Positions 119 through 58,863 of a DNA stretch of 64,000 nucleotides are shown one piece after another. A program made the position numbers and the translations under genes. The stretch spans positions 1 to 64,000 of the forward strand of contig JALHMH010000003.1 in NCBI GenBank assembly GCA_022844165.1. Reading direction: 5' to 3'. Position 1 is the first letter of the stretch, and every line of letters begins with the position of its first letter. The notes under the pieces were generated by a model. That model ran no database searches. It was not told the DNA's origin and saw nothing but the letters and a program-made list of their open reading frames with translations. Origin of the DNA: Lysobacterales bacterium (GTDB lineage Bacteria; Pseudomonadota; Gammaproteobacteria; Xanthomonadales; SZUA-5).

Positions 119-152
119 CGAGACGACAGCGCGGACGAGACGACAGCGCGGA
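119..152. repeat. 17-bp perfect tandem duplication abutting the element-end motif
   Basis: CGAGACGACAGCGCGGA at 119-135 and 136-152, running into GGACATCCA at 150-158. Confidence 0.95.
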
Positions 153-330
153 CATCCAGTTTTTTTGATTCTTCATGCGAACCTGTTAGACGTGCAAACG
201 TTTAGACGTCTGGATACAAGATTCAAACCGGGATGATTTTCGGCGCGCGATCAACGCCTCCAGACGCCAGCGGCGCCAGAAATCCCATGTGAGTATCTCA
301 GCCGGTCACAAGGCTCCGGGCATAGCCATG
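150..330 (-). mobile_element. 3'-end fragment of the HUH/RAYT-like element (last codons plus 3' flank)
   Basis: Near-identical to 340-520; begins with GGACATCCA. Confidence 0.9.
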
Positions 331-339
331 CGACAACGC

Positions 340-1631
340 GGACATCCAGTTTTTTTTGATTCTTCATGCGAACCTGTTAGACGTGCAAACGTTTAGACGT
401 CTGGACTAAAGATTTGAACCGGGATGATTTTCGGCGTGCGACCAACGCCTCCAGACGCCAGCGGCGCCAAGAATCCCATGTGAGTCTTTCAGCCGGTCAC
501 GAGGCTCCTGGCGTAGCCGATGCCTTTGAGCCACTTCCGTTTCCACTCTGCGGCTTTGGCCTCGAGTGCTTCAACGCTGGCAACGAAGCGCCAATATCCA
601 GAGCCGACGCCTTTGACATGCGCGGTCCAGTAGTTGGTGTCGAGTCCGAGCTTGCTCAGCGCAGTCGGCTCACGCTCATCGATCTTGCCGCGTTTGCCGG
701 GTCTGAGTTGGCGGCCGGTGTAGTCGACCAGCTCAATGTACTGGCGATTGCTCATCGCCAGTCTGGCGAAGGCTTGGTCTTTCAACATATCTAATCCAAG
801 CCGAACGCCGGCAATGGGTTGGATCGGCTCGTCCGCTTTGCTGGGATCTTTGCGCAGATCCTCGGCGCGCACCTGCACGCTGGTGTGATCGCTGCTCTCG
901 ATACTGTCGGCGATCCCGGCTCGCACGGGATTGAGATCGACGTAGGTCATCGCAGCGGCAAGTGCGGCTTCGTCGTCCAGGAGCTGGCACTTGAACCGCC
1001 CTTCCCAGAAGCGCCCTTTCACGTCATCTTCGGCATTCGCTTTGCGCGCGACGTACTCGTCGAGACAGCGCATGAACCAGGACAGATCCGCGAGCCGATC
1101 GCGGCGAGCCTCAAGTGCGGCTTTGTCCGCGCACAGCGCTGCGATTTTCACCGCGTTCTGCTCGGCCTCGCGCGCCGGGAACAACTGCACCCAGCGACTG
1201 GCAACTTCCTCGTCAGACCATTCGCGCGCGGCGGTCGGTTCAATCGACAGCACCACGTGCAAGTGGTTGCTCATCACGGCATAGCTGTAAACATCGACCG
1301 CAAAAATCCCAGCCAATTGCAGGATGCGCGAAGCGATCATTGGCTTGCGGTGCTCGTAGTCCACTCCCGTGATCGGATCAATGCCGCACAGCCACGCGCG
1401 CCGCACGCAACGTGCGACGCAGTGATAGAGGCCTTGCTGGCCTTCGGCGACAGTGAGGTGGCGGGCTTGAGTCATGCGGCGATCATTGCGATGACCGCTG
1501 AGCTTGTCTGTAGGGCGTACGCTGAAAGTGGTGTCAGAATTTTCCGACAGCGAATGTGATCGGGGTCATTTCGCCGCTTCGCCAGGTGGCTACGGGATTC
1601 CAATACCCATGGCGGCGAAGAGTGGTTGTCT
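340..1631 (-). mobile_element. HUH/RAYT-like element copy A
   Basis: Bounded by GGACATCCA (340-348) and the variant inverse motif TGGTTGTCT (1623-1631). Flanks are shared with copies B and C. Confidence 0.8.
489..1475 (-). CDS. HUH/Y1 transposase (RAYT / IS200-like), 328 aa
   Basis: YHCVARCVRR, YAVMSNHLHVV (HUH), RFWEGRFK, YVDLNPVRAG (catalytic Tyr). Confidence 0.92.
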   Translation of the reverse strand: MTQARHLTVAEGQQGLYHCVARCVRRAWLCGIDPITGVDYEHRKPMIASRILQLAGIFAVDVYSYAVMSNHLHVVLSIEPTAAREWSDEEVASRWVQLFPAREAEQNAVKIAALCADKAALEARRDRLADLSWFMRCLDEYVARKANAEDDVKGRFWEGRFKCQLLDDEAALAAAMTYVDLNPVRAGIADSIESSDHTSVQVRAEDLRKDPSKADEPIQPIAGVRLGLDMLKDQAFARLAMSNRQYIELVDYTGRQLRPGKRGKIDEREPTALSKLGLDTNYWTAHVKGVGSGYWRFVASVEALEAKAAEWKRKWLKGIGYARSLVTG

Positions 1632-1684
1632 CGGATCTCCACGGATCTCCATGGTCTCGGATCTCCATGGCTGTCTCGGACCTC
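1629..1684. repeat. Stutter repeat (TCT)CGGATCTCCA outside the copy A 5' end
   Basis: Four degenerate copies, including a second motif TGGCTGTCT at 1668-1676. Confidence 0.9.
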
Positions 1685-1685
1685 T

Positions 1686-1866
1686 GCAGCATAACCAGGC
1701 GCGTCGCACGCAACGTGCAATGCAGTAACAAAGGCCTTGCTGGCCCTCGGCGACGGTGAGGTGGCGGGCTTGGGTCATGCGGCGATCATTGTCGCGACGG
1801 CAAGGCGTGTCTGTCAGGCTAACGCCGAAACTTCTGTAGGAATTTTCTGGCGGCTGGTGGATGTCC
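1686..1866 (-). mobile_element. Diverged 5'-end fragment of the HUH element
   Basis: Encodes MTQARHLTVAEGQQGLCYCIARCVRRAWLC from ATG 1778 and ends at TGGATGTCC (1858-1866). Confidence 0.88.
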
Positions 1867-1991
1867 GTGATCTAGGATCTAGTGATCTAGGCACTCTGAA
1901 ACTTCTGTAGGAATTTTCTGGCGGCTGGTGGATGTCCGTGATCTACGCCGTGATCTACATCCGGATCTACGTCCGTGATCTACGTTCGATC
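1827..1991. repeat. 48-bp duplication of the element end plus GTGATCTA stutters
   Basis: 1827-1874 equals 1898-1945. GATCTA occurs seven times after the TGGATGTCC motifs. Confidence 0.92.
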
Positions 1992-2057: not shown

Positions 2058-2837
2058 TCAGAGCGTCTCTCCACGGTCGTGGTTGTCGTCCGCTCGCAAC
2101 AGATCCAGCACGGCGCGTGCACTGTCCTGATGGAGGAGGGTCACTGCCGAGTGATCGAGGAACGTGGAAGCGTGCTGAGTCAAGGCCGCGCGCGTCGCGG
2201 GATCGGCGGCCAGGGTGTCCAGATCGACGTCATTGAAGTAGTCGGCGCGGGTAGCGCCGCGGCGGGTTTCAGCAACCAAGCCTTCAGCCGTCAATCCGGT
2301 ATCGAACCGCAAGTGGGCCAACAGATTCGCACGGAAAGGCTCAAGGCGTTCGAGCAGGGTGGCGTTCAATCGGGTGAAACTGTCGGTGAAGGTGTCGTAA
2401 TCCCTCAGCGCGTTGCGCAAGCGCTCGTCGCGCAGGATGCCGAGCTGCGCAGCGGACAGCATTTCGACATAGGTGGCTGCGCGTGGCGGAGCCGGATTCA
2501 TGCTGGTGACGTTGTTCAGATCGATCAGCATCGCGAATTTGTCGCGGGGCCAACGGCCCAACTTTTGCCAGCCGTCCAGATCAGCCAACAACTGGTTGGC
2601 TGAAGCGAGGTTTCTCTGCCATTTCATCGCGCTGCGGCTTAATCGCGCATCGATTTTTTCGAAGTCCAGGACAAGGCGGTCAATGACTTCCGCTTCGCGT
2701 TGCTGGGATTTTCGTTCCTCATTCCAGTTCGCCACCTGGATACCCAGGAACACACCCAGCACCAGCAGCACGAACTCGATGCTGATCGCGGTCCAGTTCT
2801 GTTCCTTCAGGTTCTGGGCGATGCGGCGAAGGATCAT
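2058..2837 (-). CDS. Membrane-anchored hypothetical protein, paralog 1 (DUF6090-like)
   Basis: N-terminus MILRR..QNWTAISIEFVLLVLGVFLGIQVANWNE (single TM). ATG overlaps the upstream stop. Confidence 0.8.
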   Translation of the reverse strand: MILRRIAQNLKEQNWTAISIEFVLLVLGVFLGIQVANWNEERKSQQREAEVIDRLVLDFEKIDARLSRSAMKWQRNLASANQLLADLDGWQKLGRWPRDKFAMLIDLNNVTSMNPAPPRAATYVEMLSAAQLGILRDERLRNALRDYDTFTDSFTRLNATLLERLEPFRANLLAHLRFDTGLTAEGLVAETRRGATRADYFNDVDLDTLAADPATRAALTQHASTFLDHSAVTLLHQDSARAVLDLLRADDNHDRGETL

Positions 2838-3619
2838 GGCGTATCCGTTTTCGGAGAACGGCCAAGTGCCGTGTCGATGCTGCGCTTGAGTTCGACGCAA
2901 GTGGCGCGCTGTATCCGGAGGATGTCGACGATTTGATGCGCCGAGTCCATCCAGAAGTTGAGCTCCGCCACCAGTTGCGGGTGGTCTGTGTACTTGCGCA
3001 GCACGCCCAGCGCGACCGCTTCATCCACGGGAGCCGCGCAGTCCCTGTGTTCCACCACCGCAAGGTCAAAGCACTGCGTGGCGATGTGGCGACCAATGCG
3101 ATAGGGCGTCAGCCCGCGCACCAGCCTTCGGTATTCCGGGTTGAACTTCAGGATGTAGTCGGCGCGCGCAAAGGTACCACTCACAAAATACTCGGTGAGT
3201 GCGGTGCGCAAAGCGGTGTCTCGCACCAAGCCGAGTTCGCCCGCCGAGCGCATCTCCTGATAGGTGCTGTCGACCGGCGAGTACGGCAGGATGCGGCTGG
3301 CCTGGGCAAATGACAGCACGGTCTGCCAGGCGGATCCGTCGGCCAGCCTGCCATCCTCCGCCCATCCGAGCGCGGCCTCGCCATAGGCGATGGAGCGACC
3401 GACATAGGCCGAGCGCTTGTCGATGGACGCCAACTCCTGATCGAGATCGTTGGATAGCCGTTCCAGGAAGTCGTGCGCACGCCGGTCTTCCAGTCGAGCC
3501 TCATTCCAGTTCGCCACCTGGATACCCAGGAACACACCCAGGACCAGCAGCACGAACTCGATGCTGATCGCGGTCCAGTTCTGTTCCTTCAGGTTCTGGG
3601 CGAGGCGGCGAAGGATCAT
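2834..3619 (-). CDS. Membrane-anchored hypothetical protein, paralog 2 (DUF6090-like)
   Basis: Same N-terminus; TYQEMRSAGELGLVRD motif. Confidence 0.8.
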   Translation of the reverse strand: MILRRLAQNLKEQNWTAISIEFVLLVLGVFLGIQVANWNEARLEDRRAHDFLERLSNDLDQELASIDKRSAYVGRSIAYGEAALGWAEDGRLADGSAWQTVLSFAQASRILPYSPVDSTYQEMRSAGELGLVRDTALRTALTEYFVSGTFARADYILKFNPEYRRLVRGLTPYRIGRHIATQCFDLAVVEHRDCAAPVDEAVALGVLRKYTDHPQLVAELNFWMDSAHQIVDILRIQRATCVELKRSIDTALGRSPKTDTP

Positions 3620-4404
3620 GGCGAAGCCTCCAGTTCGGCATCGATCAGCGTCACGATCTCGTCGATCATCTCGATCTGTCGCTGGCGCTGCGGCAGGGAA
3701 TTGAACGCGAAGCGCCGCAGCATCCTGACCGCCACCCCGAACTCACGATCGCCGCGCATGGCCGCAAGGTCGTAGACGATCAGCTCCTCGCGGATGCCGG
3801 ACAGCTGCGTGTCGTCCGCGACCGTCCGGCTGGTGACGTGCCGCAGCAGGATGGGAATCTGGCGCACGGCGTTGTCGTTGGTCATCCGCATCAGCTCCAG
3901 CATCACGCCGTGGAAGCGATCGTAGTCCGTGAGGCGGTCGCGAAGCCGGGGGTTGGCGATGCGGCTGAGCTGGCCGTTCGAACGCATTTCCACATAGGTC
4001 GCCGGCAACGGCGGCGGATTCCGGGTCTGCGCCAGCGCATCCAGGGCGCGGGCCATCCCTGCATGGTCGATCGGGGTGTCTTGCGAAGCCGCATCGTCGG
4101 CGAGCACGCGCGTCATCAGCAGCTCGCCGCCATCGATCGAGTCGCGGTAGAACCCGACGTGCTGCTGGGTTCTCTCGCGGATGCCGATCAGGTCGATCCG
4201 CAGCCGCTCGAGATACTGGGCCTGCAGGGCCGTCTGCTGCCTATCCTCGTTCCAGTTCGCCACCTGGATACCGACGAACACGCCGATCACCACGATCGCG
4301 AAGTCGATGCCGATCGCGGTCCAGTTCTGCGTGCGGATGTGTTCGGCCACGCGCAGCAGGCGGGTTGGGCGCGGTGTGATGGCCTCGGCGGTGCGCTCAC
4401 TCAC
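3616..4404 (-). CDS. Membrane-anchored hypothetical protein, paralog 3 (DUF6090-like)
   Basis: QNWTAIGIDFAIVVIGVFVGIQVANWNE; TYVEMRSNGQL. The GTG start at 4404 is inferred. Confidence 0.78.
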   Translation of the reverse strand: MSERTAEAITPRPTRLLRVAEHIRTQNWTAIGIDFAIVVIGVFVGIQVANWNEDRQQTALQAQYLERLRIDLIGIRERTQQHVGFYRDSIDGGELLMTRVLADDAASQDTPIDHAGMARALDALAQTRNPPPLPATYVEMRSNGQLSRIANPRLRDRLTDYDRFHGVMLELMRMTNDNAVRQIPILLRHVTSRTVADDTQLSGIREELIVYDLAAMRGDREFGVAVRMLRRFAFNSLPQRQRQIEMIDEIVTLIDAELEASP

Positions 4405-5130: not shown

Positions 5131-5567
5131 TTGCGACCAGACGCCGCCCTAGAGCTTAAGTAGTTCCTCTGAAGGGATCAACTCCATCATCCAACGCCTT
5201 ACTTAAGCAAACAACTTCCGAACACGAACCGTGCCAATACGGCCGCTTTTTTGCCGTATCAGCTATTTCCATAACCTCCGGGCGTCGAGGATAACCCGCG
5301 TAAGGCGGATTCCCGTGTGGGGTGGAACCCGCACACACTTCATCGTGCGGATTCCACCGCCCCGCGCAGGGCACGATGGACGATGGTGTGTCGGGGCCGG
5401 ATGGTTCGGAGGGGTTCCGGACATCCACTCGTCGTCTCCTCAGCCGATGTCCGCCCATGGCGCATCGTCAGGCGTATTCACGGCGCGCTCCTGAGCGAAC
5501 TCATCGAAGTGTGCCGCGAATCGGTGGGTGCGCCAGGATGCTCTGGACGGGCGGTGCGCCAGTGAAC

Positions 5568-8500
5568 TCACTCGAAGCCGTCCGCGAACACGCCGTCGAC
5601 CACTTCGCCGATCAGTTCCACGCTCGCCTGCTGATCGTAACCGGCGGCCTCGTTGGACAGTCGAATGCGAGCATCTGCCGTTTGCAGGCCCACGCGCGAG
5701 GGATCGCCAGCGAGCCGGTACGCGTAAGTGCAAGACGCGCCGGGCGCCAAGGTGGCGGGACAGGCGCCGACCAGGGTGAACGGTGTGGCCAACGATCGAT
5801 TCACGGTGAGCGTCACATCGCTGGTATTGACGATAGTCACCGAGGCGCTGTTGCTTGCATCGACCGGAATGCGGCCAAGATCGATGCGAGTCGGCGTCAC
5901 TTGCGCCAGTGTGCCGCTGCCCTGCCCGTTCAAGCTGATCATCACCTGGCGCGACTGCGCGCCTTGCGAAACGGTCAGGAAGCTGTTGAGCGCGTAGCGA
6001 ATCGCCGCACGCGGCAGGAAGCTGAAATCGATCAGACAGCTATTGCCTGGCGTGGTCGGGTTTGCGCACGGCGGACCGCGTAACCATGCCACTTCGCTGG
6101 GCGGAAGGTTGCCGCCGCTGACGCTGATGTTGCTGGCCGACAGATTCTGGGTGGCGGTCAGCAAAGTGGCGCTTTTTCCGACTGGGACCAGGCCGAAGTC
6201 GAGCGCGACCGGACGCGTCGAGCTGATTTGCGCGCCTACGGCGCCGACGCCGAGCAAGCCAATATCGAAGCTGTCGCTGAAGTCCGAGAAGAAGGAGTCT
6301 TCGAAGAAATTCAGGCGCGAGCTGCTCGCAAACCGGCCCGCAACGCTTGGCTCGAAGCGGTAGACAAGGCTGCACGATGCGCCCGCTGCGAGCGTGGCGC
6401 CGCAGCTCGATACTGGACCGGCAAAGCCGACACTGCTGGTGAGTGCGCCGCCGCTCAAGCGCAGTAGTGCGGTGGTCGGATTGGCGATGGCGATACTGAC
6501 TGACGTGCTGGTGCCGACGCCCTGCGTGCCGAAATCGATACGCGCCGGCCCCAGATCGACCAGCCGTCCAGTGCCGGTGCCGCGCAGATCGACGTTCGCC
6601 AGCGTGGTCGGCGCGCTACCGATCGTGGCGCTCACGCGCGCCAATCCGGCAAACGTCGCCCCGGCTCCCAGGCGCGGCCGGAAGGTCAGGTTCAAGGTAC
6701 ACGAAGCACCGGCCGCCAGCGGCACGGTGCAGGCGCCATCGTCGACCGAGAACGCGGATGAAAGCAGCGACACTGGATCGCCCAATAGCTCGATCGTTGG
6801 ATCGAACGGCGCGCTCGAATCGTTGCGCACCAGCACCGGCAAAGTCACCGCTCGACCAACGCGCACCGCACCGAAGTCGATGCGCGTGGGCGTCACGGTG
6901 AAACGCTGCGGCGCTTGCGCCTGCGCTGCAGCGACGCTGAGGGTATAGCTGCGGCTGGCGCTGGCGCCTGCGCTGTCGATCGCGCGCACGGTAAAGGTGA
7001 AACTGCCTACCGCTTGCGGCCTGCCGCTCAACACACCACTTTGCGCTTCGAGCGCCAATCCCGGCGGTATCGCGCCGGCGCTGATCGACCAGCCGCTGAC
7101 GATCCCGCTGCCCCCGGTGGTCTCGAAATCGACGCTGTACAACGCTCGCTCGGTGGCGCCTGGGAGCGGTGGGGCGTTGACGATCGCCAACGGCACCGGT
7201 ACTGGCACCACTTTGAGTGTGTACTGGCGGTAAGCAATGTTGGAAGCGCTGTCGTTGACCCGCACAACGAACCCAACATCGCCGACCGATGTGGGTGTGC
7301 CCGACAAAATGCCGCTGGTGGACAGCGAGAGGCCCACCGGCAAGCTGCCGTTGGCGATGCCCCAACCACTGTAGACGCCGCTGCCACCCACGGCTTGGAA
7401 GCCCAGCGAGTAAGCGCTGCCGACCGTCGCCGGCGGCAGCGGCGATGGCGTCGCGATGGCGAGCGCCGGCAGAGCGCCCACCGTGATGGCGTAGCCGCCC
7501 GTGGCCTGCGTACCGTCGCTATCGGTGACACGCACCGTGAAGTTGAACGTGTCGACCACTGTCGGCGTGCCGGACACTGCCCCGCTGGCGGCCAGCGTCA
7601 GTCCCGTGGGCAGGCTGCCGCCTACGATCCTCCAATCGATGTAGGTGCCGGAGCCGCCGATCGCCTGGAACGAGAGCGAGTACGGCGCTTGCAGTGTCGC
7701 TGGCGGGAGCGGCGGCGGCGTCGAAATCTCGAGTGCGCGTGTCACCGTTGCCGGGGAGGAAAACTCCGAGGTGTTGTTTGCTGCGGAGAGCGGTTGCGGC
7801 GGTTGATCGCCGGCCGGCGGCACATCGACCAGCAGCAGATCCGTCGCCGTCGCCACCATCGCCTTGCCGCTGGTGTCGCCACTGCCGCCCACGGTGGCGG
7901 TACAAACGCCGGCCACGCAGCCTGCGCCGATCGCCACGCCTGCGGTGTTGAGGGTGACCGTCTGCTCGCCGAGATGGGTCATACCCGCGCCGTCGGCAGC
8001 CAGCTCGTAGAAGTCGATGCGCAGCGGCCGCGATGGCGAAACTGGCCGCAGCGGCAAGGTCCAACGCAGCGAGGTGCCATTGCCGCCGAAAGTGGGGCCG
8101 GCACCGGCGCCGCATTCGACCGGCATCGGACTGCCGCTGCACAGGATCGGGGCGATCTGATCGAGGTTGGCGTAGTTTTGCGGCAGAGCGTTTGGATTGA
8201 AGCCGTCGGGCGCGTTCGGCACCCGTTCCAGATCGATGCCGATGCCGCTGCCGCCGCGCGCGTTGCCGTAGATCGCGTTGCGTTGAATGACGTTGGCCCA
8301 GCCGGTGGCGGCCGAACCTTGGCGCAGCGCCACGCCATTGCGGCCATTGCCGGCAATGATGTTGATGTCGTTCGGTGCCGGGCCACCGATCTGGCTGCTG
8401 CTGGCTTGAAAAAGGTGCACGCCATCGCCGACATTGCCGAGCCCGATGACGGGCGCCAGACCGGTCGGCGGCGACACGCCGATGAAGTTCCCTTGCACCT

Positions 8501-11607: not shown

Positions 11608-13806
11608 CTAATAGCACATCGTTCCGGTCCCGAGGCACAACAAAACGTCTCGCGCCCGTGCCCGAAGTAGCGGCGATTCGGTGGGCGAGATGTTTCCGCG
11701 CAGGCCAACCGGGCTGGTACATGACGGGCCGTAATTGCCGAAGCAAAGGTCGGAATAGAGGAACATCAGCAAACCATCGACGCGCGGCTGCGTTTGCGTC
11801 AGCGACTGGTAGTAGGACAATCGATTGCGCATCGTCGCAAGCTTTGGCGCCGGATTCACATCGTTTCCTCCGATCCAGCCTTCGGCGACCACGAAAAAGC
11901 GTGCCGACGGTTTCGATATCTGTTCCAACTTCGCAAAGAACTGCTGATCGGTGAATCCGTTGCACGCCGACAGTGACGGACTGCTGTAGTTAATGGGATA
12001 GCAGTTCACGGCAAGCAAGTCGTACATCAGCGGGTTCTGCACGAGCGTCTGGGTGCCCAGAGGGCCGTTTCCGGCGATGCGCGGACTCAAAACGCCACCG
12101 ATCTTGGTCGAACTGGAAGCGCCGGCAGGCCGGAACTTGCGAACCATGGTCTCGAAACTCGACATGTCGGCAGCCGTGATGCACTGATGCAAATCGGGTT
12201 CATCCACCGGAAGAACCGCCAGGATCTTGGCGTATTGCTGTGCCGTAAGTTGCGCCATCAGCGATGTCCACTTCTGCTGCGCGTTGTCCAGCACATCGAA
12301 ATGCAGACCCGGTTCGCTGATGGTATTGCCCTCGCCGCAGGTGTTGCACGGCCAGGTGCGGCAGCCGAACAGGAAATTCGTGGTGTCCAGAAGCAGCTTC
12401 TTGCCGGGCGGAAGCGAATCCAGAATTCCGGCCAAGTGCAGATCTGGGCGCTCCAGTTGGACGTACAGCGTATTGGTGTGTTCAAGCACCTCATTCGAAT
12501 AGTCGAGGTTCAATTCCATATCGCCTGGAAAACTGGGGTTCAGCGTCTTTCCTCGGAAGTAAGCCGTAAACTTCGGGCTCGGCACAGCGCGTGTTCCCGT
12601 GACAGTAACGCGCGCCAATTCTGCTGCGGAGGGATTCGAGGGCGGGCCACCGCGCAACGCGATCACGTAGGTACCCTCGGCGATCTGGCCGAAGGTAAGC
12701 GAATTGCTGAGGTTGTGGTCGATCCATTGACCTTGCAGCGTGGGACCGGACAGGATCCATACGGTTGCGTCGGAAACGCCTTGCGCGGACCACGTCAATT
12801 GCGTGGTGCAGTGCTGCGCTCCAACCGGGATAACGCAGGACGTAGGATTGGCGGTTAATGTCCCAGTCGCGGTCTGCTGCGGAATGCCTTGCAGGGTAAC
12901 GCGAGCGATCTCGGGCGCGTTGGGCTGCGCGGGCGAACCGGCGCGAAGAGCGAAGACATAGGTTCCTGCAGCTATGTCATAAATCGGAATCGAGTCGTTC
13001 TGGGCATAGTGAATCCAGGTACCGGCGCGTGTAGGACCGGAGACACCCCACAACGTGACCTCGGGATATCCAGAGGTCTGCCAATTCAAGTAAACCGAGC
13101 AATGCGTCTGGCCGCTCGGTATGGTGCAGTTTGCGGGCGTCGACCAGAGGCTTGCGCTGGTCTGAACTTGCCGAATGCCGGTGATCGACGTGCGGGCCAG
13201 TTCCGGCGCGTTCGGTTCGGCCGGGGAGCCTGCACGCAACACGAAAGTGTAGGTACCTTCGTGGATCCAGTAGATTGGAATGGTGTCCGCCACGGCAGTG
13301 TGAATCCAGAGCCCGGCATTCGTTGGACCCGACAGTACCCACAACGTCGCGCTGGCGGCGCCTTGCGTGCTCCAACTCAGAGACGAATTGCAGGTGTCGC
13401 TCCCTTGAGGAATCGTGCAAGTCGACGGACTGGCGCTGATCTGCCCGGTTGCGGCACCAGACGATCCTGGCAGGCCAGTCACCGACCGTCTGGCCAACAC
13501 CTTGCCGTTTGGCTGATTGGGTGCGCCGGCGCGTAGCACGAAAACCGTTGTTCCCTGGCGAATCCAAGGAATCAGCAGCGTCGCGCCAGGGGCGTGGTGC
13601 ACCCAGCTTCCCACGTTGATCGGGCCCGATTCGACCCACAGCGTGGCTGTAGTCGTCCCTGACGATGTCCACGTCACAGTCGTCGAGCACTGGCCTTCAG
13701 AACTAATGGTGCATGTTGATGGGCTGAAGCTCAGCGTTCCCGACTGCGCATGGGCAGAGGACGCCCAAGCAAAGAAAACGAACAAAAGTAGCGCTATTCG
13801 ATTCAC
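11608..13806 (-). CDS. Secreted protein with four about 96-aa repeats and a C-terminal putative glycoside-hydrolase-like domain
   Basis: Signal peptide; repeat SP..CTIP.G...C...L.W...G....TLW..SGP..G.WI; C-terminal VDEPDL. Confidence 0.75.
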   Translation of the reverse strand: MNRIALLLFVFFAWASSAHAQSGTLSFSPSTCTISSEGQCSTTVTWTSSGTTTATLWVESGPINVGSWVHHAPGATLLIPWIRQGTTVFVLRAGAPNQPNGKVLARRSVTGLPGSSGAATGQISASPSTCTIPQGSDTCNSSLSWSTQGAASATLWVLSGPTNAGLWIHTAVADTIPIYWIHEGTYTFVLRAGSPAEPNAPELARTSITGIRQVQTSASLWSTPANCTIPSGQTHCSVYLNWQTSGYPEVTLWGVSGPTRAGTWIHYAQNDSIPIYDIAAGTYVFALRAGSPAQPNAPEIARVTLQGIPQQTATGTLTANPTSCVIPVGAQHCTTQLTWSAQGVSDATVWILSGPTLQGQWIDHNLSNSLTFGQIAEGTYVIALRGGPPSNPSAAELARVTVTGTRAVPSPKFTAYFRGKTLNPSFPGDMELNLDYSNEVLEHTNTLYVQLERPDLHLAGILDSLPPGKKLLLDTTNFLFGCRTWPCNTCGEGNTISEPGLHFDVLDNAQQKWTSLMAQLTAQQYAKILAVLPVDEPDLHQCITAADMSSFETMVRKFRPAGASSSTKIGGVLSPRIAGNGPLGTQTLVQNPLMYDLLAVNCYPINYSSPSLSACNGFTDQQFFAKLEQISKPSARFFVVAEGWIGGNDVNPAPKLATMRNRLSYYQSLTQTQPRVDGLLMFLYSDLCFGNYGPSCTSPVGLRGNISPTESPLLRARARDVLLCLGTGTMCY

Positions 13807-13905
13807 AATGTTTCCATTGGTTATTGGCGTCCGGAGAGCATAGAAGCCCTCAGTCGAATAAATGCACGAGCCAGCATTTATTGCACGTGCGTTACAATCT
13901 GACCT

Positions 13906-13980
13906 TTAGGCCGAAATCGCCAACTGCTCGCGGTGATAGAGCCGAGAGGCCACGAACACCACGATCGTAAATGCCGAACG
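13906..13980 (-). pseudogene. Probable 3' remnant of an ABC permease gene
   Basis: AFTIVVFVASRLYHREQLAISA* resembles the C-terminus of NatB-like permeases (recalled, not searched). The upstream part is replaced by the stutter. Confidence 0.45.
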
Positions 13981-14099
13981 CTGCCGAACGCGGAGCCGAA
14001 CGAACGCGGACAAACGCGGACATCCCGAACGAACACGGAACGAACACGAACGCGGAACGCGAACGCGGAACGAACACGCGGAACGAACACGGACATCCA
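13973..14099. repeat. Long irregular GAACG/GAACACG/CGCGGA stutter
   Basis: About 120 bp of permuted short units ending in GGACATCCA (14091-14099), with a partial motif at 14018-14025. Confidence 0.92.
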
Positions 14100-14464
14100 G
14101 TTTTTGACTCTTCACGCGAACCAGTTAGACGTGCAAACGTTTAGACGTCTGGACACAAGATTCGAACCGGGATGTTTTTCGGCGCGCGATCAACGCCTCC
14201 AGACGCCAGCGGCGCTAAAAAAATCCCATGTGAGTATCTCAGCCGGTCACGAGGCTCCTGGCATAGCCGATGCCTTTGAGCCACTGTTGCTTCCACTGTG
14301 CGGCTTTGGCCTCGAGCGCTTCCGCGCTGGCAACCAAGCGCCAATAGCCAGAGCCGACGCCTTTGACGTGCGCGTTCCAGTAGTTGGCATCCAGTCCAAG
14401 CTCGCTCAGTGCCGTCGGCTCACGCTCATCGATCTTGCCGCGTTTGCCGGGCTTGAGTTGGCGG
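14091..14464 (-). mobile_element. 3'-end fragment of the HUH element, inverted relative to copy B
   Basis: Encodes RQLKPGKRGK...GIGYARSLVTG* (stop at 14239) plus the conserved 3' flank. Confidence 0.92.
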
Positions 14465-14525
14465 GCTCTTCGGGACACCCAGCAGCCGTCAGTAGGGGCT
14501 CTTCGGGACACCCAGCAGCCGTCAG
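14463..14525. repeat. 30-bp direct duplication of the copy B 5' end
   Basis: GGGCTCTTCGGGACACCCAGCAGCCGTCAG at 14463-14492 and 14496-14525. Confidence 0.95.
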
Positions 14526-15727
14526 AAAATTCCGACACCACTTTCAGCGTACGCCCTACAGACAAGCTCAGCGGTCATCGCGATGATCGCCGCATGACTC
14601 AAGCCCGCCGTCTCACCGTTGCCGAAGGCCAGCAAGCCTTCTATCACTGCGTTGCACGATGCGTGCGGCGCGCGTGGCTGTGCGGCATTGATCCGATCAC
14701 GGGCGTGGACTACGAGCACCGCAAGACGATGATCGCGGCGCGCATCGTGCAATTGGCCGGGATCTTTGCGGTCGATGTTTACAGCTACGCCGTGATGAGC
14801 AACCACTTGCACGTGGTGCTGTCGATTGAACCGGCCGCCTCGCGCGATTGGTCTGATGAGGAAGTTGCACGGCGCTGGGTGCAATTGTTCCCGGCGCGCG
14901 AGCCCGAGCAGAACGCGGTGAAAATCGCAGCGCTGTGCGCGGACAAAGCCGCACTTGAGGCTCGCCGCGATCGGCTCGCGGATCTGTCCTGGTTCATGCG
15001 CTGTCTCGACGAGCACATCGCGCGCAAGGCGAATGCCGAAGATGATGTGACGGGGCGCTTCTGGGAAGGCCGATTCAAATCTCAGTTGCTTGACGACGAA
15101 GCCGCGCTCGCCGCGGCGATGGCGTACGTCGACCTCAATCCGGTTCGAGCCGGGATCGCCGACTGCATCGAGAGCAGCGATCACACCAGCGTGCAGATGC
15201 GCGCCGAAGAACTGCGCAAAGATCCCGGCAAAGCGGACGAGCCGATCCAACCCATTGCCGGCGTTCGGCTTGGATTAGATATGTTGAAAGACAAAGCCTT
15301 CGCCAGACTGGCGATGAGCAATCGCCAGTACATTGAGCTGGTGGACTACACCGGCCGCCAACTCAGACCCGGCAAACGCGGCAAGATCGACGAGCGTGAG
15401 CCGACGGCACTGAGCAAGCTTGGCCTCAACACCAACTACTGGACCGCACACGTCAAAGGCGTCGGCTCTGGTTATTGGCGCTTCGTTGCGAGCGTGGAAG
15501 CACTCGAAGCCAAAGCGGCTGAGTGGAAGCGACAGTGGCTCAAGGGCATCGGATATGCCCGGCGTCTTGTGACGGGCTGAGAAACACACATGTGGACTTT
15601 TGGCGCCGCTGGCGTCTGGAGGCGTTGGCTGCGCGCCGAAAATCGCCACCATGGGAACCACCATTTCGTACGCCTAGACGTTTACGCGGCAAAAATCCTA
15701 AAGGACTGGAACGGAAAGTGGGTGTCC
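14506..15727 (+). mobile_element. HUH/RAYT-like element copy B
   Basis: Bounded by GGACACCCA (14506-14514) and TGGGTGTCC (15719-15727), a perfect 9-bp inverted pair. Confidence 0.85.
14594..15580 (+). CDS. HUH/Y1 transposase (RAYT / IS200-like), 328 aa
   Basis: Near-identical to copy A, with HUH and Tyr motifs intact. Confidence 0.92.
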   Translation: MTQARRLTVAEGQQAFYHCVARCVRRAWLCGIDPITGVDYEHRKTMIAARIVQLAGIFAVDVYSYAVMSNHLHVVLSIEPAASRDWSDEEVARRWVQLFPAREPEQNAVKIAALCADKAALEARRDRLADLSWFMRCLDEHIARKANAEDDVTGRFWEGRFKSQLLDDEAALAAAMAYVDLNPVRAGIADCIESSDHTSVQMRAEELRKDPGKADEPIQPIAGVRLGLDMLKDKAFARLAMSNRQYIELVDYTGRQLRPGKRGKIDEREPTALSKLGLNTNYWTAHVKGVGSGYWRFVASVEALEAKAAEWKRQWLKGIGYARRLVTG

Positions 15728-15736
15728 GCGGAACTT

Positions 15737-16600
15737 CTAGGAATTGTCCCAGTCCCGCGGCTCCGCGCCTTCGAGTAGCAGCAGCGTGATCACCCGGTCC
15801 CGGTCAGTGTAGGAATGCTTGAACTCCCGCAACTTCATGTGTGCGCCCTCCTCGGCGCACCAGATCGCCGCGGAGCACTCCACGCCATCGAAGCATTGCA
15901 CCACGCTGGCGTCTGCGGCCAGGGTGCCGGCGAACGGCTCTTGCGCGGAATCTGTTTGGCGGACTCGGGCGCGGGTCTTGAGGGCGTTGCGGCTGGCTCG
16001 CTGGTACTTGAGGAAGCCCTGATCCCAGTGGATCAAGATCGCGCGCTGGTCCGTGGCTTCGATGAAGCGCAGGCACAACGCTTCGAAGGAGACTTCGAAG
16101 GTGCGCGCGATCTCGCTCAGCAGGTGCAGCGTGACTTTGCGTTGATCGCCGAGGAAGCGCCGCAGCAGATCCATGGGCATGAGCAGGTTGCTGGCGAATT
16201 CGTTGGCCTCGCGTTCGATGTTGCGGCCATCGAACTGCCCTGAGGTGACACCGCTGTTGTCGCATTCGAAGCGGTCTTGCAGCGCACGGTGCAGGATGAA
16301 GTGGCCCAATTCGTGCGCGATGGTGAAGCGGCTGCGCTCGGGCGTCGCGTGTTCCTTGAAGAGGATGCCCCATTCGGCGGGATCGTCCGGGTTGCGGACC
16401 AGGCAGCCCTCGAAGGCGCTGATGTCGAGCGGCCTCGGTGGCTTGATCTCACGGACGCCCTTGCCGTACGGCGTTTCCGGAAGCATTTGGCCAAGCACAT
16501 CCAGATCGGTGGCTTCGGGCATGGTCGCGCCATGCCATAGGCGCAACCACTTCAGCGCGGTGGTGGCCGCTACGAAGGGGGTAAGGTCCTGCGCGTTCAC
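15737..16600 (-). CDS. ImmA/IrrE family metallopeptidase
   Basis: RFTIAHELGH; EREANEFASNLLMP; FEVSFEA. Confidence 0.9.
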   Translation of the reverse strand: MNAQDLTPFVAATTALKWLRLWHGATMPEATDLDVLGQMLPETPYGKGVREIKPPRPLDISAFEGCLVRNPDDPAEWGILFKEHATPERSRFTIAHELGHFILHRALQDRFECDNSGVTSGQFDGRNIEREANEFASNLLMPMDLLRRFLGDQRKVTLHLLSEIARTFEVSFEALCLRFIEATDQRAILIHWDQGFLKYQRASRNALKTRARVRQTDSAQEPFAGTLAADASVVQCFDGVECSAAIWCAEEGAHMKLREFKHSYTDRDRVITLLLLEGAEPRDWDNS

Positions 16601-21974: not shown

Positions 21975-22116
21975 ATGTTCGGGCCGATACGCCAGATCGC
22001 AGCCGGCCCGCCGATGGATGGGGGCATGGAGTACGTGGCGCTGGAGGAGCGATTCCACCTGCGAGCCGATGTTGTCTCGTTCATTGGCGCACCCGGGGCC
22101 GGCGTACCGCGACGTC
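21975..22116 (+). pseudogene. Fragment of a diverged paralog of 18414..19331
   Basis: PIRQIAAGPPMDGGMEYVALEERFHLRADVVSF aligns with PTRQISAGVPTDAGVEWLALEERFRLRGEVVSF. Confidence 0.85.
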
Positions 22117-22177
22117 AGAATCGCGGACAGCCACGGTGCAGAATCGCGGACAGCCACGGTGGCGGAATCGCAGCCAC
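22116..22177. repeat. 23-bp tandem duplication plus a partial third copy at the copy C 5' end
   Basis: CAGAATCGCGGACAGCCACGGTG at 22116-22138 and 22139-22161. Confidence 0.95.
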
Positions 22178-23420
22178 GCGGCGAACCACCCTAGGGAGCC
22201 GGATCACGTTCGCTGTCAGAAAATTCCGACACAACTTTCAGCGTTTGCCTGACAGACAAACGCATTGGTGATCGCCATGATCGCCGCATGACCCAAGCCC
22301 GCCACCTCACCGTCGCCGAAGGCCAGCAAGCCTTCTACCACTGCGTTACGCGCTGCGTGCGGCGCGCGTGGCTGTGCGGCATTGATCCGATCACGGGAGT
22401 GGACTACGAGCACCGCAAGCCGATGATCGCGGCGCGCATCCTGCAATTGGCTCGGATTTTTGCGGTCGATGTTTACAGCTATGCCGTGATGAGCAACCAC
22501 TTGCACGTGGTGCTGTCGATTGAACCGACCGCCGCGCGCGATTGGTCTGATGAGGAAGTTGCCCGGCGCTGGGTGCAATTGTTCCCGGCGCGCGAGGCGG
22601 AGCAGAACACGGCGAAAATCATCTCGTTGCGCGCAGACAAAGCTGCACTTGAGGTCCGCCGCGGTCGGCTCACGGATCTTTCGTGGTTTATGCGCTGTCT
22701 CGACGAGCACATCGCGCGCAAGGCGAACGCCGAGGATGACGTGACGGGGCGCTTCTGGGAGGGCCGATTTAAATCTCAGTTGCTTGAAGATGAAGCAGCG
22801 CTTGCCGCGGCGATGGCGTACGTCGACCTCAATCCGGTTCGAGCCGGGATCGCCGACAGCATCGAGAGCAGCGATCACACCAGCGTCCAGGTGCGTGCCG
22901 AGGAACTGCGCAAAGATCCCAGCAAAGCGGACAAGCAAATCCAACCCATTGCCGGCGTTCGGCTTGGATTGGATATGTTGAAAGACAAAGCCCTCGCCAG
23001 ACTGGCGATGAGCAATCGCCAGTACATTGAGCTGGTCGACTACACCGGCCGCCAACTCAAGCCCGGCAAACGCGGCAAGATCGACGAGCGAGCGCCGACG
23101 GCGTTAAGCAAACTCGGACTCGACACCAACTACTGGACCGCGCACGTCAAAGGCGTCGGCTCAGGTTACTGGCGCTTCGTTGCCAGCGTGGAAGCACTCG
23201 AAGCCAAGGCAGCGCAGTGGAAACGGAAGTGGCTCAAAGGCATCGGCTACGCCCGGAGCCTCGTGACCGGCTGAGAAACTTACATGGGATTCTTGGCGCC
23301 GCTGGCGTCTGGGGGCGTTGGTCGCGCGCCGAAAATCATCCCGGTTCGAATCTTGAGTCCAGACGTCTAGACGTTTGCACGTCTAACAGGTTCGCATGAA
23401 GAAACAGAAACTGGATGTCC
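22148..23420 (+). mobile_element. HUH/RAYT-like element copy C
   Basis: Bounded by GGACAGCCA (22148-22156) and TGGATGTCC (23412-23420). Confidence 0.85.
22288..23274 (+). CDS. HUH/Y1 transposase (RAYT / IS200-like), 328 aa
   Basis: Near-identical to copies A and B. Confidence 0.92.
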   Translation: MTQARHLTVAEGQQAFYHCVTRCVRRAWLCGIDPITGVDYEHRKPMIAARILQLARIFAVDVYSYAVMSNHLHVVLSIEPTAARDWSDEEVARRWVQLFPAREAEQNTAKIISLRADKAALEVRRGRLTDLSWFMRCLDEHIARKANAEDDVTGRFWEGRFKSQLLEDEAALAAAMAYVDLNPVRAGIADSIESSDHTSVQVRAEELRKDPSKADKQIQPIAGVRLGLDMLKDKALARLAMSNRQYIELVDYTGRQLKPGKRGKIDERAPTALSKLGLDTNYWTAHVKGVGSGYWRFVASVEALEAKAAQWKRKWLKGIGYARSLVTG

Positions 23421-31364: not shown

Positions 31365-31499
31365 AGATCCCCGCCGCACGACCGCAGCGGGTTGGGCCCC
31401 TGCGGTTGTGCGGGCAACAGCACAAGCTGGCCAGGGACGGGCTGACGTTGTTGCCAATGTTGGCGTCGGCAGGCTGTGGACGAGCGAGTGTTAGGTGAC

Positions 31500-31560
31500 A
31501 GCATCAGGACACCCACAGCTTCAGGACACCCACCCCGCCGGAGAGCTTCAGGACACCCAC
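31500..31560. repeat. Orphan element-end motif, three copies
   Basis: AGC(A/T)TCAGGACACCCAC three times; motifs at 31507, 31524 and 31551. Confidence 0.92.
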
Positions 31561-54321: not shown

Positions 54322-55530
54322 TCAATCCGCCTGGCGACGCAAAAACGCCGGAATATCGAGATAGTCGATATCGGGGTTGCTGGGCTCCGTTACCGTGGCG
54401 GTCGGCGCGCCGAAACGGCGAACCGCCGGCTGCGGCTGCGCGGCAGGACGCTGCGTGGGCTGATGCGGCGGCGCCGGCAGTTCGCCATCGGGGCGCACGA
54501 CCCGGAAGCTGTTGCGCTGCCCCTGCGCTTGATGCACCGCCGGATTGAAGGTGTCGACCGGCTGCCGCGCGGTTTGCCGATTCAACCCGGTGGCCACCAC
54601 TGTGACGCGGATCTCGTCTTCCAGGTCCATATCGAGCACGGTGCCGATCTTGATGTTGGCGTCTTCAGCAGCGAACTCCGCCACCGTTTGACCGACATCG
54701 TTGTACTCGCGCATCGACAGATTGGGTCCTGCCGTGATGTTCACCAGAATGCCGCAGGCGCCCTTCAGGTTGATATCTTCCAGCAGCGGATTGCCGATGG
54801 CGGCTTCTGTGGCTGCGACGGCCCGATCATCGCCTTTGGCGCGGCCTGAACCCATCATGGCGAGGCCCATTTCGCTCATCACGGTGCGCACGTCGGCAAA
54901 ATCGACGTTAATCAGACCAGGACGTGTAATCAAGTCGGCGATGCCTTGCACGGCGCCGAGCAACACATCGTTAGCTTCCTTGAATGCATTCAGCAGCGAG
55001 ACCTCGCGGCCCAGCACCGACAGCAGCTTTTCATTCGGGATGGTGATCAGCGAATCGACATGTTGTGCGAGCTCGTCGATGCCCTTCATCGCCACTGCCA
55101 TGCGCCGCTTGCCTTCAAACGGAAAGGGCTTGGTGACCACGGCGACGGTCAAAATATCGAGATCCTTGGCGATCTGCGCGATCACCGGTGCGGCGCCTGT
55201 GCCTGTACCGCCGCCCATGCCGGCGGTAATAAACACCATATCCGAGCCGCGCAACGCTTCGCTGATGCGCTCGCGATCTTCGATGGCGGCCTGCCGGCCG
55301 ATTTCCGGATTCGCGCCGGCGCCGAGTCCCTTGGTGACGTTGCTGCCCAGATGCAACAAGGTAATCCCCTCAGCGCGCTTGAGCGCCTGGGCGTCGGTGT
55401 TGGCGACGATGAACTCAACGCCCTCGATACTGCCGCCGAGCATGTGAGTGACTGCATTGCCACCGCCGCCGCCGACGCCGATGACTTTAATGACCGCATT
55501 CGGTGTTGCACTTTCCATCAAGTGGAACAT
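54322..55530 (-). CDS. ftsZ: Cell division protein FtsZ
   Basis: GVGGGGGNAV, GMGGGTGTG, DIPAFLRRQAD. Confidence 0.99.
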   Translation of the reverse strand: MFHLMESATPNAVIKVIGVGGGGGNAVTHMLGGSIEGVEFIVANTDAQALKRAEGITLLHLGSNVTKGLGAGANPEIGRQAAIEDRERISEALRGSDMVFITAGMGGGTGTGAAPVIAQIAKDLDILTVAVVTKPFPFEGKRRMAVAMKGIDELAQHVDSLITIPNEKLLSVLGREVSLLNAFKEANDVLLGAVQGIADLITRPGLINVDFADVRTVMSEMGLAMMGSGRAKGDDRAVAATEAAIGNPLLEDINLKGACGILVNITAGPNLSMREYNDVGQTVAEFAAEDANIKIGTVLDMDLEDEIRVTVVATGLNRQTARQPVDTFNPAVHQAQGQRNSFRVVRPDGELPAPPHQPTQRPAAQPQPAVRRFGAPTATVTEPSNPDIDYLDIPAFLRRQAD

Positions 55531-55605
55531 GGTCTGACCCTCGCAATGAAGTACCGCTGTTGTTGTTTCGGCTCTGCGCTTCCTGCGTCTGGCCGATTGT
55601 CTTTT

Positions 55606-55710
55606 GGGGCACGGGCCACGCGACGCGGGGCACGGGAGTTGCGCAGCGCCGAATGCTCTTCGGCTTCTCCCGTGCCCCGTGCCCCGTGTCGCGTGTCCCG
55701 TGTCCCGTCC
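55606..55710. repeat. Inverted GGGGCAC/GTGCCCC heptamer arrays
   Basis: G-rich arm 55606-55638 and C-rich arm 55667-55710. Confidence 0.88.
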
Positions 55711-55711
55711 A

Positions 55712-56950
55712 TCAAAACTCCCCACCCACCCACTTCTTGACCTTTTCCCAGGCACTCAGCACGCCCGCTGTCGGCCCACTGCGCACTGGCGTGCGCGGCC
55801 GTTCGACTTGCGTGCCGTAAACCAACAAACCGACGCCCGCTGCATGTATCGGGTTACCCACGACATCGACCAGACCGGTGACATGTTGCGGTATCCCCAA
55901 TCGCACAGGCATATGAAAAATTTCTTCCGCGAGTTCCACTGCGCCTTCCATCCGGGCTGCGCCGCCGGTGAGCACCACGCCCGCGGCGATCAAGTCCTCG
56001 AAGCCGCTGCGACGCAGCTCGGCCTGCGCCAGGGTGAAGAGCTCCTCGTATCGCGGCTGCACCACCTCGGCGAGCGTTTGTCGCGCCAGGCGACGTGGCG
56101 CACGCTCGCCGACGCTGGGCACTGAGATGCTCTCTTCCGCAGTCGCAAGCTGTGCCAGCGCACATGCGTATTTGAGCTTGATCTCTTCGGCATGTTGCGT
56201 GGGGGTGCGAAGTGCAACGGCGATGTCGTTGGTGACCTGATCGCCAGCGATCGGCAACACCGCAGTGTGGCGGATCGCGCCTTGCGCAAAAATCACGATG
56301 TCGGTGGTACCGGCGCCGATGTCGATCAACGCCACGCCCAGTTCGCGCTCGTCGTCGGTCAACACGGCATGGCTGGCCGCCAGCGGCTGCAAGATCAAAT
56401 CGTCGACCGACAGCCCGCAGCGCGCAATGCACTTGGTGATGTTCTGCGCAGCGCTCGCCGCTGCAGTCACCAGGTGCGCGCGTACCTCCAGGCGGATGCC
56501 GCTCATACCGATGGGATGACGTATGCCGTCCTGTTCGTCAATCACATACTCCTGGCTGAGCACGTGGAGAATTTTCTGATCGGCCGGTATCGGCATTGCG
56601 CGTGCCGCGTCCAGCGCGCGGTCGACGTCGAAGTCGGTGACCTCTTTGTCGCGGATCGCGACGATGCCGTGCGAATTCAGGCTCTTGATGTGGCTACCGC
56701 TGATGCCGGCGTAAACCGAGCGAATCTCGCAGCCGCTCATGGCCTCGGCTTCCTCCACCGCACGCTGGATCGACTGCACGGTCGATTCGATATCGACCAC
56801 GACGCCGCGCTTGATGCCACGCGAGGCGTGGCTGCCCAGACCGATGATATCGACCGCTTCGCCAGGCGCGTACTCGCCGACCATCGCCACCACTTTGCTG
56901 GTGCCGATATCGAGGCCAACGATCAGCGATTTGTCACTCTTTCGGGTCAT
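55712..56950 (-). CDS. ftsA: Cell division protein FtsA
   Basis: GLDIGTSKV, DIGAGTTD, VLTGG. Confidence 0.98.
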   Translation of the reverse strand: MTRKSDKSLIVGLDIGTSKVVAMVGEYAPGEAVDIIGLGSHASRGIKRGVVVDIESTVQSIQRAVEEAEAMSGCEIRSVYAGISGSHIKSLNSHGIVAIRDKEVTDFDVDRALDAARAMPIPADQKILHVLSQEYVIDEQDGIRHPIGMSGIRLEVRAHLVTAAASAAQNITKCIARCGLSVDDLILQPLAASHAVLTDDERELGVALIDIGAGTTDIVIFAQGAIRHTAVLPIAGDQVTNDIAVALRTPTQHAEEIKLKYACALAQLATAEESISVPSVGERAPRRLARQTLAEVVQPRYEELFTLAQAELRRSGFEDLIAAGVVLTGGAARMEGAVELAEEIFHMPVRLGIPQHVTGLVDVVGNPIHAAGVGLLVYGTQVERPRTPVRSGPTAGVLSAWEKVKKWVGGEF

Positions 56951-58598: not shown

Positions 58599-58609
58599 CC
58601 TCGGCCTCC

Positions 58610-58855: not shown

Positions 58856-58863
58856 CGGCCCAC

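Follow-up and report, generated by a model that had tools for sequence, protein, structure and literature searches.

The locus discussed here raises the question of why a nine-base motif should be followed by a train of short, similar pieces with no common length, and what these pieces were copied from. The tract occupies positions 13973–14099 of the window, by which we mean the whole stretch of 64,000 nt of Lysobacterales DNA that was analysed. Read on the minus strand from 14099 to 13973 (127 nt), it starts with TGGATGTCC, the reverse complement of the plus-strand end GGACATCCA (14091–14099), and continues with eight irregular units of 10–19 nt, all terminated by TCC. Cutting behind each TCC that stands before G divides it into pieces of 9, 11, 13, 13, 17, 19, 10, 16, and 19 nt. 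Outward from TGGATGTCC, the sequence is very poor in A, with TCCG[CT]G present eight times and CGTTC 11 times. The partial cores GGGATGTCC and TTTGTCC are each recognisable within a piece. TRF returned seven overlapping rows with periods of 10, 10, 11, 17, 7, 13, and 13 and no single period; the longest row (period 11) has 70% matches and 27% indels. With periods spread from 7 to 17 and so many indels in the longest row, the tract is an irregular stutter and not a microsatellite or VNTR, for which a fixed period would be expected. The preliminary description of this DNA had reported irregular units of no fixed period and regenerated partial motifs, and on both points it was correct. The tract contains 53 distinct 6-mers of 122 possible, and an equal or lower diversity was found in a fraction of 3.5e-4 of 199,702 random 127-nt windows of the genome. 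The motif itself is overrepresented, as GGACATCCA occurs seven times in the 64-kb window against an expectation of 0.50, a count reached by none of 100 shuffles.

The genome is a metagenome-assembled draft, in which short repeats may be misassembled, and an assembly artefact or chance low-complexity DNA therefore had to be considered. In sequencing run X1, a contig of 740 nt spans 13600–14196 gap-free, with the listed differences beginning at 14115; in run X2, a contig of 331 nt spans 13920–14250 with 0 differences. The assembly may itself derive from the X1 and X2 samples, which therefore give no independent support. A 91-nt contig of run X4, from a separate study, spans 13927–14017, also with 0 differences. 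The tract is thus matched by contigs of three runs and two studies, and no indel difference inside 13973–14099 was seen among the contigs of four runs, a comparison at the contig level that is blind to length variation between reads. Similar patterns in isolate genomes and in one complete chromosome, together with the strong enrichment of stutters at element ends (below), leave an artefact scarcely credible. The irregular repeat tract is real.

The tract is located in a cluster of mobile-element sequences. The window contains three full copies (A, B, and C) of an element of 1.25 kb, as well as partial pieces; copy B extends from about 14505 to 15727. The features around the tract are as follows.

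13906–13968, minus strand: true flank, remnant of an ABC-2 family permease gene comprising its final ~20 codons and the stop (58-nt block, 83–90% identity)
13973–14090, minus strand: stutter array of eight irregular units of 10–19 nt (sequence cut, TRF)
14091–14099, minus strand: right terminal inverted repeat with the conserved core TGGATGTCC (terminus search, C3 – 14091)
14100–14241, minus strand: non-coding 3′ tail of a truncated, inverted copy of the element (blastn to copy C)
14242–14464, minus strand: transposase gene fragment, last 74 codons of the truncated copy (tblastn, residues 256–329, 86% identity; inverted repeat I4)
14463–14525, plus strand: left-end duplication of copy B, 33-nt unit × 1.9 (TRF, 100% matches)
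14594–15580, plus strand: transposase gene of copy B, 328 aa, predicted HUH/Y1 enzyme of TIRYT type
15581–15727, plus strand: 3′ tail of copy B and right core GTGGGTGTCC (ends at 15727), without stutter

The 58-nt permease block shares 83–90% identity with relatives and with the 3′ terminus of the gene for a 391-aa paralogue (G000:C16 of the present genome), which matches Pfam ABC2_membrane_3 (2.5e-27). The homology ends at about 13968, the first ~370 codons being missing, and a spacer of four bases separates the remnant from the stutter. On the other side of the core, 14082–14464 aligns by blastn with positions 950–1329 of copy C at 87.7% identity and includes a 31-nt shared block in the tail (14124–14154). 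In the left-end duplication of copy B, the left core GGGACACCCA is present twice, at 14472–14481 and 14505–14514. The order of permease remnant, stutter, right core, truncated copy, and copy B places the stutter beyond the right terminus of an old copy, which copy B has truncated. An RNA-family search of 13500–14700 gave a sub-threshold snoRNA row alone (E 0.12; 17.8 bits, cut-off 45), which we took as chance. Apart from its stutters, the locus is an ordinary decayed mobile-element cluster.

The remaining element sequences of the window, several of which carry duplications of their own, are listed below.

119–331, minus strand: additional partial right end, tandem to copy A (191-nt duplication), core 150–158
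330–1631, minus strand: full copy A, right core 340–348, left core 1623–1631
1632–1690, minus strand: stutter outside the left end of copy A, units of 10 nt and longer (TRF, sequence)
1676–1984, minus strand: two partial left ends with GGACATCCA cores at 1858–1866 and 1929–1937 (motif search, TRF)
22116–23420, plus strand: full copy C (the unit itself from about 22148) with its left-end duplication, right core 23412–23420 without stutter

Outside core 150–158, there is a duplication of 17 nt × 2.1 at 119–153, which starts at −4 and has its outer boundary at +13 (positions counted past TGTCC). Each of the two partial left ends has its own outward stutter (1867–1891 and 1935–1984), and the left core of copy C lies inside a 23-nt × 2.4 duplication (22116–22171). 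Four of the seven GGACATCCA sites close a shared block of ~170 nt behind the stop codon of the repeated gene. Searching the genome with the element gave 33 HSPs in blastn, with DNA identities of 72–92% between copies; tblastn found 8 full-length copies among 27 HSPs, plus fragments, with 65.6–93.6% amino acid identity to copy B. As the copies are merely 65.6–93.6% identical, the elements have not moved recently, and the scars could be old.

The protein encoded by copy B contains an HUH motif (N70-H71-L72-H73) in which H71 and H73 are invariant among 20 relatives, and the catalytic-tyrosine motif Y178 V179 D180 L181 N182 P183, all six residues of which are invariant in the same set. This stretch has the form Y---NP, the signature of class 2 in the text of Quentin et al. 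(PMC6006769). In a profile alignment, the HUH stretch was paired with the HUH of the IS200 transposase 2f4f, although the match is weak (E 0.5). The AlphaFold model (pLDDT 84.5, pTM 0.88) places helices at residues 80–149, a large insertion behind the HUH strand. The top Foldseek match is the Escherichia coli REP-associated tyrosine transposase 4ER8 (4er8_A; E 1.2e-3, probability 1.00, TM 0.64 on the target), followed by the transposases of ISDra2, IS608, and IS200 (probability 1.00); the E-values are weak because the core makes up just about half of the protein. Profile scores are below cut-off for both Pfam Y1_Tnp (17.3 bits; cut-off 23) and NCBIfam REP_Tyr_transpos (39 bits; cut-off 80), and phmmer against the PDB gave no match at E ≤ 0.01. 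Such scores indicate a divergent branch, for which membership in the HUH/Y1 group rests on motifs and fold. More than 7000 relatives are present in the protein collection; where a name is given, it is ‘REP element-mobilizing transposase RayT’. The 328-aa product is thus predicted to be a divergent HUH/Y1 tyrosine transposase of the TIRYT type, resembling TnpA_Y1 subclass 2.3.

The published features of subclass 2.3 (Quentin et al. [quoted passage not shown] By length (328 aa), motifs, and copy number (8 full-length), the protein appears to fit this description; WE and YVDLNP are identical, and the large insertion behind the HUH strand is shared. It differs in having NHLH in place of NHYH and in its host, a member of the Lysobacterales as against the published Chromatiales and Alteromonadales (PMC6006769). 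A further difference is the clear, stuttered inverted repeats at the present elements, as that work found no signature in the flanking DNA and identified no DNA substrate for the subclass (PMC6006769).

The transposase gene is bracketed by terminal inverted repeats and not by REP hairpins, and the termini fold no better than shuffled sequences. In the present genome, the left core is GGACAnCCA and the right core TGGnTGTCC or TGGnTGTCT. For comparison, 79 loci were collected from other Lysobacterales genomes, including isolates and one complete chromosome; in these, the left core lies 82–89 nt ahead of the start codon in most loci that have one, and the right core 120–320 nt past the stop codon. 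When 60 right and 57 left termini were profiled, both kinds of end showed partial conservation at +3 to +6 past TGTCC, with G at +3 in 39/60 right and 36/57 left ends and T at +5 in 45/60 and 31/57, respectively. The terminal repeat therefore reaches beyond the core. Sites with TGGNTGTCY are few, the 219 in the whole genome being below the ~300 calculated from base composition.

These properties fit the TIRtron/TIRYT class. The class is known from Stenotrophomonas, in the order to which the present host belongs. TIRtrons were described with their TIR-associated tyrosine transposases (TIRYTs) by Di Nocera, De Gregorio & Rocco in 2013 (PMC3733652), and share with the present element a RAYT-like HUH/Y1 gene between terminal inverted repeats in place of REP hairpins (PMC3733652). 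The TIR motif GGGGWSAS, which holds for the majority of the published cases (PMC3733652), appears to fit the core of the relatives, mostly GGGGACAC or GGGACAC; the cores in the window are GCGGACAT, GCGGACAG, CGGGACAC, and CGAGACAG. Two differences stand out: the genome holds 8 full gene copies plus fragments as compared to one or a few (PMC3733652), and while that work notes that REP and TIR units may recur in tandem along with adjoining DNA of varying length, short partial re-copies of an end (6–20 nt) with a fixed boundary, or a mechanism for them, do not appear in the text of that paper (PMC3733652).

Two other identities were considered and set aside. The IS200/IS605 insertion sequences, among them IS608 and ISDra2, have the Y1 HUH fold and, like the present element, leave no target-site duplication. 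A cut placed at a constant distance from the subterminal element that the enzyme recognises would be a further likeness. Their ends, however, are asymmetric hairpins, their enzyme has ~150 aa, and their copies are near-identical. The element has inverted-repeat ends, a 328-aa enzyme, and copies of 65.6–93.6% identity, and an IS200/IS605 insertion sequence was ruled out by these ends and by the DNA identity of 72–92% between copies. Nor is the flanking repeat the target-site duplication of a cut-and-paste transposon: in 50 loci, the longest strings common to the left and right outside flanks did not exceed those of 600 shuffled pairs. A comparison of filled and empty sites was attempted with genome G001 of the same genus, where a related element array is found beside the orthologue of window positions 5409–5622. 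On the far side of this array (L087), beyond ~1.4 kb, no long match to the present genome was found, so the exact limits of the element cannot be read from that comparison.

Stutters are not peculiar to this one end. Within the zone −15 to +40, a tandem duplication marks 9 of the 20 right ends and 7 of the 10 left ends of the present genome (one of the latter 10 being a wrong-strand hit). Among the controls, it was seen at 50 of 3000 random positions and at 8 of the 183 TGGNTGTCY sites that are not part of an element, and several of these 8 motif-only sites resemble solo stuttered ends. In the foreign loci, the innermost ends carry a duplication in 20 of 59 cases on the right and 25 of 56 on the left (45/115), whereas control sites 900 nt further out do so in 6 of 105. 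TRF coverage in the 79 loci reaches a peak of 20–30% at 50–150 nt upstream of the gene and of 14–20% at 150–400 nt downstream, over a background of 0.6% inside the gene and, further out, ~1–4% upstream and 2–8% downstream. Ends without a duplication are nonetheless the majority (11 of the 20 right ends in the present genome and 70 of the 115 foreign ends). Stuttered ends characterise this element family, both here and in related bacteria. That the tract is tied to the motif, as the preliminary description had proposed, is borne out by these counts, and one circumstance it named as fatal, similar tracts being equally common away from the motif, is not what we see; such tracts are rare away from the ends.

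Arrays at both ends and in many genomes might be kept by selection, the reiterated end pieces serving as iteron-like extra binding sites that regulate the transposase or its gene. Multiple subterminal binding sites are carried by many transposons. The conserved core is missing from most units, more than half of the ends have no array, and unit number, length, and sequence vary within a subfamily in a single genome (left ends C54:22147, C54:24558, C15:104230, and C3:1631). We consider such selected arrays improbable.

What the units are copies of can be read from a second array. At another locus, in G001, a copy of the TGGATGTCC subfamily has three cores, each trailed by the identical nine bases GCGTTCGGC; beyond GCGTTCGGC, the sequences differ, being local flank, inner element sequence, or another partial end. 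The stutter of this copy is a string of GCGTTCGGC plus TCC. In the array at 13973–14090, the outer units are of the GCGTTCGGC type and the inner units of the GTGTTCGT type, GTGTTCGT being the present post-core sequence. Judged by these sequences, the units are re-copies of the element's own end, made up of the last core bases and 8–13 nt beyond. The preliminary description had instead derived them from the motif tail and the local flank, and as to the flank it is not supported: the 8–13 nt belong to the extended terminal repeat, whose partly conserved bases include +3 to +6, GCGTTCGGC stands behind all three G001 cores, and the permease remnant is absent from every unit at 13973–14090. The succession of GCGTTCGGC-type outer and GTGTTCGT-type inner units in these two arrays would fit growth beside the core, with old units pushed outward. 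An orthologous array was not found in the 29 genomes (G000 and 28 relatives), in which the 58-nt permease remnant and one array-to-array match were the sole hits.

The same evidence bears on the process that the preliminary description had in mind, namely, repeated nicks repaired by Ku/LigD end-joining or PolA fill-in, with copying of the motif tail and local target DNA. If staggered cuts were filled in, the products would be blunt tandem duplications of constant span and with little microhomology, much as observed. However, the units lack local flank, the +3 to +6 bases are part of the inverted repeat, and a search for Ku (PF02735) gave no match in the present genome, which is 99.97% complete, while control genomes do give matches. 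Dependence on Ku/LigD is thus unlikely, and we give this explanation as a whole very little credence.

The positions at which duplications begin and end were determined for 32 perfect duplications that span or abut a core, from 29 foreign loci. The outer boundary lies at +8 or +9 past TGTCC in 19 of the 32 and between +8 and +12 in 28. The inner boundary ranges from −40 to +3, with its mode at −3 (TG^TCC; 7 of 32) and 22 of 32 cases between −4 and +1, and the modal unit is 11 nt. Joints have no microhomology in 19 of 32 cases, 1 nt in 6, and 2–4 nt in 7. In the present genome, the outer boundary is at +9 to +13 in 19 of 20 duplications. Among 136 successive core pairs examined for whole-core duplications, 50 had a unit identity of at least 0.8, and 30 of these, two of them with units as long as 87 and 100 nt, have the outer boundary at +8 to +13; in two longer cases, it is at +25 and +30, with an inner stutter contained. 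The 191-nt duplication at 141–523 has its joint at +12, and other tandem tails in the genome, read by eye, have joints at +8, +11, +14, and +15, and one at +33. The scars thus have a fixed outer boundary, blunt-like joints, and a continuum of sizes from 6 nt to more than 100 nt, which probably extends to more than 1 kb.

The tract at 13973–14099 therefore consists of end segments of a TIRYT/TIRtron-type element that were copied again and again, arrayed outward from the core TGGnTGTCC. As to its origin, scars at both ends and position-specific boundaries make repeated events at one site, brought about by the transposase, the best reading, as the preliminary description had supposed. HUH enzymes cut one strand and form a 5′-phosphotyrosine link; the 3′-OH left behind is able either to prime replication or to act as the attacking group in strand transfer (PMC8266576). 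We tentatively propose that the stutters are scars of a site-specific nick by the transposase followed by abortive strand-displacement synthesis and resealing, which could well be the case but falls somewhat short of an even bet. The transposase would nick one strand, the one that reads 5′ to 3′ inward, at a fixed site 8–13 nt outside the core, and would remain tyrosine-linked to the 5′ end of the element strand. The free 3′-OH on the flank side would then prime strand-displacement synthesis into the element, displacing the enzyme-linked strand. Synthesis would abort, usually after ~11 nt and at times after tens to hundreds of nt, and the enzyme-linked old strand would be rejoined to the extended 3′ end. 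At the next replication, one daughter would receive a tandem copy of the stretch from the stop point to the nick site. Each new unit would be placed beside the functional core, so that growth takes place at the inner side of the array and older units are shifted outward.

A partial analogy is found in the Rep proteins of the pT181 family, which nick with a tyrosine and for which synthesis is described as overrunning the nick by 9–12 nt until a second round of nicking and joining follows (Carr et al. 2016, PMC4797284). The length of this overshoot matches the modal 11-nt unit. Rep belongs to another protein family, acts at a plasmid origin, and retains the short piece on the protein (PMC4797284), and the likeness is to be read as an analogy only.

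The clustering of the inner boundary would be accounted for by a second specific cleavage site at least as well as by abortive synthesis. In that case, the transposase would cut one strand at two sites flanking the core, at about −3 and at +8 to +13, and join across sister strands without DNA synthesis; the 3′-OH of the outer site on one sister would be joined to the 5′ end that the enzyme's tyrosine holds at the inner site of its partner, so that one strand gains a duplication and the other a deletion. Both boundaries are indeed clustered (inner at −3, outer at +8/+9), and there is little microhomology at the joints. The E. coli TnpA_REP, also an HUH enzyme that cuts single-stranded DNA beside its recognition element and joins strands, cuts 5′ or 3′ of the REP and joins strands in vitro, and additionally cuts discrete distant sites (PMC8266576). 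Yet the inner boundaries are spread from −40 to +3 in the perfect duplications, reach −109 in longer units, and are deeper still in the 191-nt duplication, a spread for which two-site cutting would require many cryptic cut sites. We regard it as unlikely.

Replication slippage or template switching would need no catalysis; a fork stalled by bound protein or by T/G-rich direct repeats would let the nascent strand re-anneal out of register. The array is built from very similar short units, whose number can change by slippage once two are present, and the share of joints with 2–4 nt of microhomology (7 of 32) is above the chance expectation of ~6%, so some events may be slippage. As the general cause, it is opposed by the 19 of 32 first-order duplications with no microhomology, by an outer boundary that stays constant for units from 6 to more than 100 nt, and by random and motif-only sites, which lack such tracts. 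Single-stranded folding of the tract was no better than that of shuffled sequences on either strand (z +1.62 and +0.82); there is thus no hairpin to stall a fork, which also argues against a REP-like role. Slippage without catalysis is, in our judgement, quite unlikely, a shade more so than two-site cutting.

If nicking and abortive synthesis are the correct explanation, the stutters may be in vivo footprints that map the cut site of this branch of REP-type HUH transposases (8–13 nt outside the core, on the inward-reading strand) and record a rolling-circle-like copying that is started at the ends and usually aborted. This we hold as a doubtful possibility. REP/BIME sequences, too, are often found as tandem copies (PMC8266576). 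They differ from the sites described here in that REPs are hairpins present in hundreds of copies, whereas the present sites form no hairpin and have few solo copies, and the tandem units are fragments of the recognition site. Were the footprint reading true, one process, acting over lengths of ~6 nt to over 1 kb, would account for the tandem arrays of REP, BIME, and TIR units, and each array would preserve the order of events, its outermost unit being the oldest.

The element is a known kind in a new lineage, and the stutter is a by-product with a clear anatomy that suggests a mechanism. Short partial re-copies of ends were not found in the paper texts searched on RAYTs, TnpA_REP/BIMEs, TIRYTs, and Y1 transposases, among them PMC3733652, PMC8266576, and PMC6006769. 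What is new here are the controls for end stutters, the boundary statistics, the connection of short stutters to long partial duplications, the finding that neither Ku nor target-site duplications are present, and the derivation of the units from the element and not from the flank. The scars predict recognition core, cut position, and strand, and the gain of units at the ends offers an easy assay. For annotation, they explain recurrent odd low-complexity tracts and partial gene duplications beside such transposase genes. A scan of the whole 4.68-Mb genome at a slightly laxer threshold found 12 tracts of comparably poor 6-mer content; three are runs of N, and three (13973–14099, C28:58421, and C54:24441) are located at ends of this element family.

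A long duplication lies at an end of copy A, one of the full copies of the 1.25-kb element in the window. Tandem Repeats Finder (TRF) reports a tandem duplication at 141-523, with a unit of 191 nt present in 2.0 copies and 91% matches. It gives copy A an additional right end, which is partial, with the joint located 12 nt past the first core, the conserved part of the terminal inverted repeat. The duplication looks like a long form of the process behind the short stutters, the irregular tandem re-copies of the element end outside the core.

Only the last ~20 codons of an ABC-2 permease gene are left at 13906-13968. The rest of the gene was sought past the element cluster and was not found there, so the permease loss is an element-associated deletion.

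Tandem cores also occur without a neighbouring transposase gene: the first site below is a stuttered end that stands alone. The sites listed after it, on other contigs of the genome under study, resemble it.

31498-31560, minus strand: three tandem TGGGTGTCC cores, spaced 17-27 nt, directly 3' of a gene's stop codon
C1:6206, C10:114012 and C20:81947: similar solo sites

A single GGACATCCA at 5419-5427 is kept in the orthologous stretch of a genome of the same genus (G001, L007:1301-1309). In G001, an element array begins ~200 nt beyond the conserved GGACATCCA; the genome under study has no array at that place.

The 16-nt hairpin that the element carries in the interval from the left core to the start codon is found at further loci without a transposase homologue by tblastn, and at several of these a similar CAGCG-containing stretch comes after it.

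C6:122938, C7:5179, C25:48210, C23:35084, C27:48213, C29:25489 and C42:29448: hairpin loci of the genome under study without a transposase homologue

At these loci, the hairpin may act as a promoter or leader common to them and the element, or may be the remains of very old copies.

The right end of copy B, a second full copy, adjoins an IrrE/Peptidase_M78-type gene (15737-16600, minus strand; 3.1e-21). On contig C4 (~214000-214380), the right end of another element copy is located ~60 nt from a repeat array that looks like a CRISPR array, with a ~28-nt repeat occurring four times and ~32-nt spacers within the 420 nt viewed.

The gene at 11608-13806 (minus strand) encodes a 732-aa protein, predicted to be exported, with about four repeats of a ~95-aa module in the N-terminal half; its only matches, to DUF3019 and Y_Y_Y, are both weak. 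A 135-nt repeat (family D4) occurs three times at 2712-4374, with spacings of 782 and 746 nt, and several inverted arrays built of GGGGCAC-type heptamers are located at 55459-62635.
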